Program-made: the position numbers and the translations under genes | DNA from: a virus | Lineage: Duplodnaviria; Heunggongvirae; Uroviricota; Caudoviricetes | Direction: 5' to 3' (one strand) | Length of the DNA stretch: 19,878 nucleotides | IMG/VR virus record: IMGVR_UViG_2711768014_000002 | Notes under the pieces: generated by a model | Told to the model about the DNA's origin: nothing | Database searches by the model: none | What the model saw: only the letters and a program-made list of their open reading frames with translations | In this document: positions 14,305-19,878 of the stretch, piece after piece | How positions within the stretch are numbered: position 1 is the stretch's first letter | Layout: each line of letters begins with the position of its first letter

Positions 14305-17985
<3,681 letters not shown>

Positions 17986-18011
<26 letters not shown>

Positions 18012-18531
18012 TCAGCAACCCCGGTATCAGTTCATCCAGCGCGGCTGCTTTGTTCATGGCTTTGATGATATCCCGTTTCAGGAAATCAACATGTCGGTTT
18101 TCCAGTTCCGGAAAACGCCGCTGCACCGACAGGGGGATCCCGTCGAGAATACTGGCAATTTCACCTGCGATCCGCGACAGCACGAAAGTACAGAATGCGG
18201 TTTCCACCACTTCAGCGGAGTCTCTGGCATTTTTCAGCTCCTGTGCGTCGGCCTGCGCACGCGTAAGTCGATGGCGTTCGTACTCAATAGTCCCTGGCTG
18301 GAGATCTGTCTCGCTGGCCTGCCGCAGTTCTTCAACTTCCCGGCGCAGCTTTTCGTTCTCAATTTCAGCATCCCTTTCGGCATACCATCTTATAACGGCG
18401 GCAGAGTCATAAAGCACCTCATTACCCTTGCCACCGCCTCGCAGAACGGGCATTCCCTGTTCCTGCCAGTTCTGAATGGTACGGATACTCGCACCGAAAA
18501 TGTCAGCCAGCTGCTTTTTGTTGACTTCCAT
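17986..18531 (-). CDS. Nu1: Terminase small subunit Nu1
   Basis: 181-aa minus ORF (MEVNKKQLADIFGASIRTIQNWQEQGMPVLRGGGKGNEVLYDSAAV...), which I recognise as lambda gpNu1 with a few substitutions. Start is 189 nt from the predicted cosN end. Confidence 0.97.
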
Positions 18532-18555
18532 TGTTCATTCCACGGACAAAAACAG

Positions 18556-18668
18556 AGAAAGGAAACGACAGAGGCCAAAAAGCCCGTTTTCAGCACCTGT
18601 CGTTTCCTTTCTTTTCAGGGGGTGTTTTAAATAAAAACATTAGGTTACGGCGAAGAAGAACGGAAACG
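18556..18668 (-). promoter_or_regulatory. cosB: Nu1-binding sites R1, R2, R3 with intervening IHF-site (I1) region
   Basis: Read on the minus strand from cosN toward Nu1: R3 CGTTTCCGTTCTTCTT (18653..18668), an AT-rich I1-like segment (about 18620..18650), R2 AAAGGAAACGACAG (18597..18610) and R1 CTGTCGTTTCCTTTCTC (about 18556..18572). R1 and R2 form a 14-bp perfect inverted repeat with a 24-bp spacer. These match the cosB elements as I recall them from lambda. Confidence 0.75.
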
Positions 18669-18708
18669 CCTTAAACCGGAAAATTGTCATAAATAGCGAA
18701 AACCCGCG

Positions 18709-18720
18709 CGCCTTCCGCCC
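18709..18720 (-). other. cosN (predicted 12-nt cohesive-end segment), variant sequence
   Basis: Revcomp of 18697..18731 is GACAGGTTACG-GGGCGGAAGGCG-CGCGGGTTTTCG. The flanks are identical to lambda cos (right end ...GATCCGACAGGTTACG, left end ...CGCGGGTTTTCGCTATTTATGA...), but the 12-mer reads GGGCGGAAGGCG rather than the canonical GGGCGGCGACCT (from memory). Confidence 0.7.
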
Positions 18721-18756
18721 CGTAACCTGTCGGATCGCCGGAAAGGACCCGCAAAA

Positions 18757-18771
18757 TGATAATAATTATCA
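18757..18771. promoter_or_regulatory. Perfect Fur-type 7-1-7 palindrome TGATAAT-A-ATTATCA
   Basis: Directly visible at 18757..18771 (full 17-bp palindrome ATGATAATAATTATCAT at 18756..18772). It matches the minimal Fur recognition unit TGATAATnATTATCA. It lies about 40 bp from cosN on the side away from Nu1 (roughly where cosQ is expected) and about 150 bp upstream of the YbcW-like ORF. Function unproven. Confidence 0.35.
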
Positions 18772-18919
18772 TCTACATGTCACAACGTGCATCTACGCCA
18801 TCAAACCACGTCAAATAATCAATTATGACGCAGGTATCGTATTAATTGATCTGCATCAACTTAACGTAAAAACAACTTCAGACAATACAAATCAGCGACA
18901 CTGAATACAGGGCAACCTC

Positions 18920-19153
18920 ATGTCAACGAAGAACAGAACCCGCAGAACAACAACCCGCAACATCCGCTTTCCTAACCAAATGATTGAACAAATTAACATC
19001 GCTCTTGTTCAAAAAGGGTCCGGGAATTTCTCAGCCTGGGTCATTGAAGCCTGCCGCCGGAGACTGTGCTCAGAAAAAAGAGTTTCGCCTGAAGCAAACA
19101 AAGAAAAGAGTGACATTACTGAATTGCTCAGAAAACAGGTTAGACCAGATTGA
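18920..19153 (+). CDS. ybcW: Small ribbon-helix-helix-like protein (YbcW-like, function unknown)
   Basis: 77-aa plus ORF, AT-rich. TRNIRFPNQMIEQINIALVQKGSGNFSAWVIEACRRRL fits a beta-strand / helix / G-x-S turn / helix RHH (Arc/CopG-like) pattern. The N-terminal ~45 aa match what I recall of E. coli YbcW (DLP12 prophage) and the equivalent lambda right-end ORF; the C-terminal tail differs. Recognition is from memory, not a search. Confidence 0.6.
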   Translation: MSTKNRTRRTTTRNIRFPNQMIEQINIALVQKGSGNFSAWVIEACRRRLCSEKRVSPEANKEKSDITELLRKQVRPD

Positions 19154-19210
19154 AGCAATTTAGATAATCGTGCAGACTACGCCCCCTCATATCACATGGA
19201 AGGTACTACA

Positions 19211-19621
19211 ATGGCTCAGGTTGCCATTTTTAAACAAATATTCGATAAAGTGCGAAATAATTTAAACTATCACTGGTTTTATTCTGAACTAAAACGTCAC
19301 AATGTCTCACATTACATTTACTATTTAGCCACAGAGAATATTCATCTTGTTCTTGAAAACGATAATACGGTTTTAATAAAAGGACAGGGTAAGGTTGTAA
19401 ATGTAAGATTTTCAAAAAATAAATGCCTTATAGAAGCCACCTTAAAAGGATTCAAATCAGGAGAGTTATCATTTTACGAATACAGGAAAAATCTTGCTAC
19501 AGCAGGGGTTTTCAGATGGATTACAAATATCCACGAAAACAAAAGGTATTACTATACCTTTGATAATTCATTACTCTTTACTGAGAACATACAGAACACT
19601 ACACAAATATTTCCGCACTAA
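19211..19621 (+). CDS. ybcV: DUF1398-family protein (YbcV-like, function unknown)
   Basis: Plus ORF, very AT-rich. I prefer the second ATG at 19211 ([65 protein letters not shown]..., 136 aa) because GGAAGG precedes it by ~7 nt; the track ORF starts 5 codons earlier at 19196. Resembles E. coli YbcV and the lambda right-end ORF as I recall them (roughly three-quarters identical by eye). Confidence 0.6.
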
Positions 19622-19878
19622 ATCATAACGTCCGGTTTCTTCCGTGCCAGAACCGGACTCGCTGGCATGATGAAATATGTGTACCCGGTAACCCCGGTGT
19701 GCATCGTTTTTGATTATTCCCGCACACTCGCGCAGAAGGAGTTCCCCGTCGGGCTACGGTCTCTGTTAATACGGGAATACGGCGACGATTGGATTTGCCC
19801 CTATATTTCCAGACATCTGTTATCACTTAACCCATTACAAGCCCGCTGCCGCAGATATTCCCGTGGCGAGCGATAACC

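Follow-up and report, generated by a model that had tools for sequence, protein, structure and literature searches.

The stretch of DNA analysed here (the window; 19,878 nucleotides of IMG/VR record IMGVR_UViG_2711768014_000002, a virus of the Caudoviricetes) carries a perfect Fur-box palindrome immediately beside its cohesive-end site, and the question raised by this locus is whether the palindrome acts as an operator, and of which genes, or takes part in DNA packaging. The initial annotation had considered it either as an iron-responsive operator of two adjacent small ORFs or as a part of the packaging-termination region, recognised by terminase or a host factor other than Fur. The region represents a lambda-type cos in reverse orientation with the order A, Nu1, cohesive end, cosQ, 6-bp spacer and palindrome, and its sequence context, with the palindrome between cosN and two plus-strand ORFs, is as originally described. 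The features are as follows.

16086-18011, minus strand: A gene, in the lambda cos-region layout
17986-18531, minus strand: Nu1, small terminase subunit (Pfam Phage_Nu1, E = 2.4e-101)
18532-18708, minus strand: cosB region, between cosN and the Nu1 start, with about 93% identity to lambda cos
18709-18720, minus strand: cosN cohesive-end 12-mer, GGGCGGAAGGCG in lambda orientation, variant at bp 7-12
18744-18750, minus strand: cosQ, reverse complement of GGGTCCT, read from the sequence, 6 bp from the palindrome
18752-18776, no strand: extended Fur array, 19-mers at 18752-18770 (16/19) and 18758-18776 (14-15/19), 6 bp apart
18756-18783, minus strand: predicted sigma-70 promoter-like site GTGACA-16-TATCAT (consensus scan 10/12), -10 inside the palindrome, directed towards cos/Nu1
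18757-18771, no strand: 7-1-7 Fur-box palindrome, exact and unique, equal to the DLP12 'nohB' site and to the CFT073 copy under a ChIP-seq summit
18846-18859, no strand: perfect FNR box TTGATCTGCATCAA in the ynfO leader, read from the sequence
18920-19153, plus strand: YlcI/YnfO family gene, DUF3950 (Pfam PF13132, E = 2e-20)
19196-19621, plus strand: YbcV/YdfO-like gene, DUF1398 (Pfam PF07166, E = 3.3e-43)

The plus-strand cassette had been named YbcW/YbcV-like, which holds for its second ORF (YbcV/YdfO-like, DUF1398), whereas the first ORF belongs to the YlcI/YnfO family. The centre of the palindrome at 18764 lies 233 bp from the Nu1 ATG (18531) on one side and 156 bp from the ynfO ATG on the other, with the FNR box located 89 bp beyond the palindrome in the leader of the cassette. 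In lambda, cosQ occupies positions 48473-48479. The element has been characterised as conserved and 7 bp long (PMC4669245). The cohesive end GGGCGGAAGGCG differs from that of lambda (GGGCGGCGACCT) at five of the six positions 7-12, which are free to vary according to published work; it was found in none of the 192 cos sites sampled as described below, yet 32 IMG/VR contigs carry it.

As to the palindrome itself, its exact 7-1-7 core TGATAATAATTATCA (TGATAAT-A-ATTATCA) occupies 18757-18771, and the span of 18756-18772 originally assigned to it was one flanking base longer on each side. This core meets the minimal 7-1-7 Fur unit TGATAATnATTATCA exactly and is the sole match to TGATAATNATTATCA within the window, even at up to two mismatches (0.01 expected by chance), with a 7-1-7 match occurring in only one of 200 dinucleotide shuffles. 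Scanning with the 19-bp classical Fur box GATAATGATAATCATTATC gave 16/19 at 18752-18770, a maximum score of at least 16 being reached by one of 200 dinucleotide shuffles, and second 19-mers matching at 14-15 of 19 positions overlap the palindrome at a 6-bp shift on both strands. Such overlapping 19-mers 6 bp apart fit the expectation for a Fur array, and the palindrome constitutes the window's only strong match to the Fur consensus.

Although the initial annotation was not aware of any description of this element as a Fur site, the literature contains several such descriptions, in which the element is called nohA or nohB. The DLP12 prophage of E. coli K-12 contains the same 15-mer with identity across +/-9 bp, which is the span of the 19-bp Fur model, while the Qin copy, likewise the lambda sequence, is the centre-G variant TGATAATGATTATCA. 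In DLP12 and Qin the palindrome centres are 233 bp from the ATG of nohD and nohA, respectively, the same distance as in the window, and their U00096.2 coordinates (579824 and 1634624) coincide exactly with the 'nohB' and 'nohA' Fur clusters listed by Chen et al. 2007 (PMC2189734). In that study, the nohB cluster scored 25.3 bits and ranked third in strength genome-wide, compared with 22.3 bits for nohA, and three to four overlapping walkers were reported at these K-12 sites. The nohA site, picked on account of an overlap between its Fur site and a sigma-70 prediction, was gel-shifted by 150 nM Fur and was added to the 24-site Fur model spanning -9 to +9. For nohB the authors cite the 1994 Fur titration work in which this site was first detected, and for nohA its recovery through selection in vivo by Vassinova and Kozyrev (2000). 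The '-133' given there for nohB appears to be a misprint of -233. For the uropathogenic E. coli (UPEC) strain CFT073, Fur ChIP-seq (Banerjee et al. 2020, PMC7157518, Table S5) gave a summit at 3046729, assigned to 'nohB' (c3174), only 3 bp off the midpoint of an exact copy of the window 15-mer. The ATG of a small terminase gene is located 233 bp from this copy, and ylcI follows downstream. A second summit in that table, at 1424721 and with a height of 283, was assigned to 'nohA' (c1568) and is some 20 bp away from a variant of the 21-type, CGAGAATAATTATCA. In an FNR ChIP-seq study, the peak at 1634625 carries the label 'nohA, repressed by Fur'. Among the prophage-associated Fur peaks of CFT073, the strongest one (alpA) was also considered and has no relation to cos.

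By homology and conserved position, the window palindrome is to be equated with the Fur sites published as nohB (nohD) and nohA and is hence already known, and Fur binding to it is established through its homology to bound sites. The original reading as a Fur site is thereby borne out by titration, in vivo selection, EMSA and ChIP-seq on homologous copies. Besides the 15-mer (DLP12), the 233 bp to the ATG of a Nu1 homologue and the position 6 bp past cosQ, the K-12 sites share with the window the same neighbours (ylcI/ynfO and DUF1398); the assignment to nohA/nohB in the literature predates the annotation of ylcI and ynfO. Unlike the cryptic prophages of K-12, the window genome is apparently an intact lambda-like one with full-length A and Nu1 and the variant cohesive end.

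The palindrome is probably a high-affinity operator for host Fur that silences a weak cos-proximal promoter. Under iron-replete conditions, Fe-Fur dimers would fill the 7-1-7 core and the overlapping site 6 bp away, and this occupancy would cover -10-like hexamers within the palindrome, so that starts there are kept off. The regulated start would most probably be a weak promoter reading through cos into Nu1 and A, i.e., the 'nohA/nohB promoter' of the literature, with control of the plus-strand YnfO/DUF1398 genes as a possible, secondary effect. We infer both the repression of a promoter by binding and the strand that is affected. This model is favoured by the exact and unique 7-1-7 match, the 16/19 match with its partners, the identity to bound sites, the occupancy in CFT073, the conservation across lineages, the predicted minus-strand -10 within the palindrome, the sigma-70 prediction overlapping the nohA Fur site and the position of a nohA start relative to the FNR box. 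Concerning the latter, the FNR box TTGATCTGCATCAA has the same sequence as the FNR target found by ChIP-chip and EMSA at nohA/ydfO and nohB of K-12, and Grainger et al. 2007 gave -85.5 as its position relative to a nohA start; with this spacing, we read the start as falling inside the palindrome.

Against the operator model stand several observations on transcription. A nohA/B::lacZ fusion was weakly active and responded marginally to fnr (Grainger et al. 2007), and the CFT073 delta-fur expression tables lack c1568, c3174 and their neighbours. The supplement of a Cappable-seq study likewise contains nothing at the homologous coordinates. On the side of binding, the CFT073 ChIP-seq analysis discarded multi-mapping reads, which would weaken the signal at repeated prophage copies (Banerjee et al. 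2020, PMC7157518). The DNA containing the predicted minus-strand -35 differs from lineage to lineage, and one common promoter therefore does not explain the conservation of the palindrome. A promoter directed into terminase genes in an iron-limited lysogen would moreover bring no obvious benefit and could be harmful.

How far the palindrome is conserved was examined in cos sites sampled from IMG/VR with anchors on the cosN side only, which yielded 192 true cos sites. With 0-3 mismatches it is present in 185 of these: in 104 of 111 lambda-type sites with 0-2 mismatches (0-1 in all but two), in all 60 of the 21-type as a copy with 2-3 mismatches and in all 21 of the phi80-type with 0-1 mismatch, at a variable spacing of 4-8 bp from cosQ. 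Among sequenced phages it is found in phi80 and mEp237 (both perfect), N15 (CGATAATAGTTATCG), 21 and Stx1a phages, and in mEp043 it is perfect although the cosN-cosQ interval has strongly diverged. Identity to the window amounts to 12-15 of 15 positions in the palindrome and falls to 6-12 of 30 immediately beyond it, where at least eight unrelated sequences begin. A comparison of 40 distinct contexts showed no variation at the core positions, a freely varying centre (A in 25, G in 15) and the greatest variability at the outer T, a pattern expected for Fur recognition; an AAA run on the cosQ side of the palindrome is also kept across lineages. At one locus (L127), the cosN-cosQ-palindrome block is intact even though the Nu1 homologue has 37% identity and cosB is unrelated. 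Of 5,426 complete E. coli genomes, 3,511 (about 65%) contain the segment with cosN, cosQ and palindrome. Since the palindrome is kept across lineages that differ in the DNA beyond it, on this comparison it is the outermost edge of the conserved cos module and not a private element of the cassette. The Nu1-family protein of L127 (1567-2178 in that locus), joined to cosN-cosQ-palindrome-ynfO, may mark a distinct packaging specificity or a satellite-type cos.

This distribution bears directly on the proposal that the plus-strand YnfO/DUF1398 cassette is an iron-regulated accessory block with the palindrome as its iron-responsive operator, which is a possible but unlikely reading. Palindrome and YnfO are almost always found side by side in loci of the lambda type, seven of which have lost both at the same time, with a breakpoint right after cosQ. 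The distal, better-conserved half-site contains a plus-strand TATCAT, with AGGACC of cosQ located 17 bp upstream (8/12 by our reading), and plus-strand ORFs also lie beyond the palindrome in Stx1a-type and 21-type loci. However, phi80, N15 and the mEp phages mEp237 and mEp043 retain the palindrome without the YnfO cassette and with the end of a late-strand gene adjoining it, and two further loci (L010, L124) retain it with different genes downstream. The joint loss in seven loci had at one stage suggested a property of the YnfO cassette, a view reversed by retention of the palindrome in phi80, mEp237, 21, Stx1a, N15 and mEp043. Inheritance exclusively with the cassette is hence contradicted by all of these lineages together with L010/L124. 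Furthermore, the ynfO ATG is 156 bp away from the centre, its leader bears its own perfect FNR box, and Fur-dependent expression of the flanking genes is absent from the CFT073 delta-fur tables. The idea of an operator dedicated to the adjacent cassette is thus not supported, given the persistence of the palindrome in cassette-lacking lineages, this separate FNR box and these tables.

The palindrome could instead be thought of as an essential termination signal read by terminase, or as an RNA hairpin or terminator, in keeping with its palindromic nature and its proximity to cosQ. Such a role is extremely unlikely. An intrinsic terminator or structured RNA was rejected on account of a weak hairpin (-3.3 kcal/mol, z = -1.6), and at the site of the palindrome neither a terminator was called nor a match to Rfam found. 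Recognition by terminase within the termination signal, which had been suggested at first, is at odds with the variable 4-8 bp spacing from cosQ and with plaque-forming phages that lack the palindrome. Seven of the 192 sampled cos sites have no palindrome, all of lambda type with Nu1 of 93-99% identity; it is absent from the isolated and viable phages 4A7 and IdasGreatGrand, and, judged by the extent of the match, from 3W, 2B8 and Lambda_4C10. A packaging signal of lambda cos would be expected at a fixed spacing and in all functional members, neither of which holds for the palindrome. Because seven of 192 cos sites and the viable phages 4A7 and IdasGreatGrand lack it, the palindrome is not an essential packaging element and is dispensable for phage viability.

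A further reading is an accessory role in packaging. From the viewpoint of the approaching motor, Fur would sit on the DNA shortly before cosQ and act as a roadblock that slows translocation and aids recognition of cosQ and cosN at termination. Slower packaging motors reportedly suppress cosQ defects. In every lineage cosQ/cosN is the sole conserved partner of the palindrome, and this link holds at 37-53% identity of the small terminase, with unrelated cosB and with different neighbours. The variable spacing of 4-8 bp would fit an independently bound protein, and the lack of detectable transcriptional output fits as well. Nevertheless, this proposal is speculative, drawn by analogy with IHF at cosB, and is quite improbable given the viable phages and the seven of 192 cos sites without a palindrome and the degenerate copies of the 21-type. 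In addition, cos consists of cosQ (7 bp), cosN and cosB in the packaging papers examined, and the palindrome does not appear in them; those of the Feiss laboratory on cos are silent on Fur as well as on any palindrome beside cosQ. Taken in the wider sense of a functional accessory of the cos module, either as a roadblock aiding termination or as a means of tying terminase-gene expression to host iron, the Fur box is still a distinctly unlikely candidate; if this were true, the iron physiology of the host would feed directly into the production of lambdoid virions.

The palindrome may also be bound and yet functionless, as an AT-rich sequence that hitch-hikes with cosQ at the edge of a recombination module and titrates Fur without consequence. 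An excess of binding over regulation is known in CFT073, where Fur ChIP-seq revealed 349 peaks as compared to 57 regulated operons (Banerjee et al. 2020, PMC7157518), and the low activity of the fusion, the absence from the delta-fur tables and the dispensability of the element point in the same direction. This is very improbable when confronted with the retention of 12-15 of 15 positions where the cosN-cosQ interval and the flanks have diverged (mEp043, N15), with homology collapsing beyond the palindrome, and with a substitution pattern that matches the tolerance of Fur.

Returning to the operator over a weak promoter, its architecture is that of classical Fur operators such as fhuF, cirA and entC (7-1-7 and 9-1-9 models), including the 6-bp overlaps and the overlap with a -10-like element, and differs from them by its location in the DNA-packaging region with no iron-related gene nearby. 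A prophage-borne Fur box linking a phage locus to host iron is known from Stx1-converting lambdoid phages, whose stx1 promoter is repressed by Fur. That box is situated in the promoter of the toxin operon far from cos, whereas the one in the window is tied to cosQ, and Stx1a phages carry an additional cos-adjacent copy besides the stx1 box. In the packaging reading alone, a parallel can be drawn with the IHF site I1 in lambda cosB, both being sites for host DNA-binding proteins within the cos module; the role of IHF in packaging has been demonstrated, whereas that of Fur is speculative. As a Fur site, the window palindrome adds nothing new, because homologous K-12 sites helped to train the published Fur model. 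The only fresh point is that it accompanies cos in many lambda-like phages whatever genes adjoin, and what it still offers lies in the comparison of phages: a Fur site that ranks among the strongest of E. coli is a conserved companion of cosQ in lambda, phi80, N15, 21-like and Stx1a phages. Sites of such strength, present in multiple prophage copies, could matter as Fur sinks.

Some further observations concern the neighbouring DNA. Four loci, L058, L081, L311 (4A7) and L312 (IdasGreatGrand), have an alternative segment past cosQ, e.g., GCAGGCGTTCTGGTTTATTCGC, in place of palindrome, YnfO and DUF1398, and this segment links cosQ to a conserved region upstream of bor that corresponds to about 19640-19760 of the window. 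The window also contains a partial ORF at 19667-19876 (MMKYVYPVTPVCIVFDYSRTLAQKEFPVGLRS...), which several lineages, the ones lacking the cassette among them, have conserved upstream of bor. The YlcI/YnfO protein (18920-19153) has, by our reading, a ribbon-helix-helix-like N-terminus. In K-12, published genomic-SELEX sites of PdhR lie in the ybcV/ybcW and ynfO/ydfO regions of DLP12 and Qin (L003, L002), and a pdhR mutant is reported to have about 10-fold less ybcV and ybcW mRNA; PdhR may be relevant to the real regulation of the cassette. The YnfO family is apparently restricted to Escherichia and Shigella, with cos adjoining every member, so that it offers no homologues in other contexts for a reciprocal comparison. 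Most matches to YnfO homologues from other taxa represent lambda control DNA as a contaminant. Loci L131-L166 (GTDB genome_contigs), contigs of about 3.5 kb identical to the right end of lambda and nominally derived from unrelated taxa such as Streptomyces, Cohnella, Pedobacter and Polaromonas, look like such contamination with sequencing control DNA.
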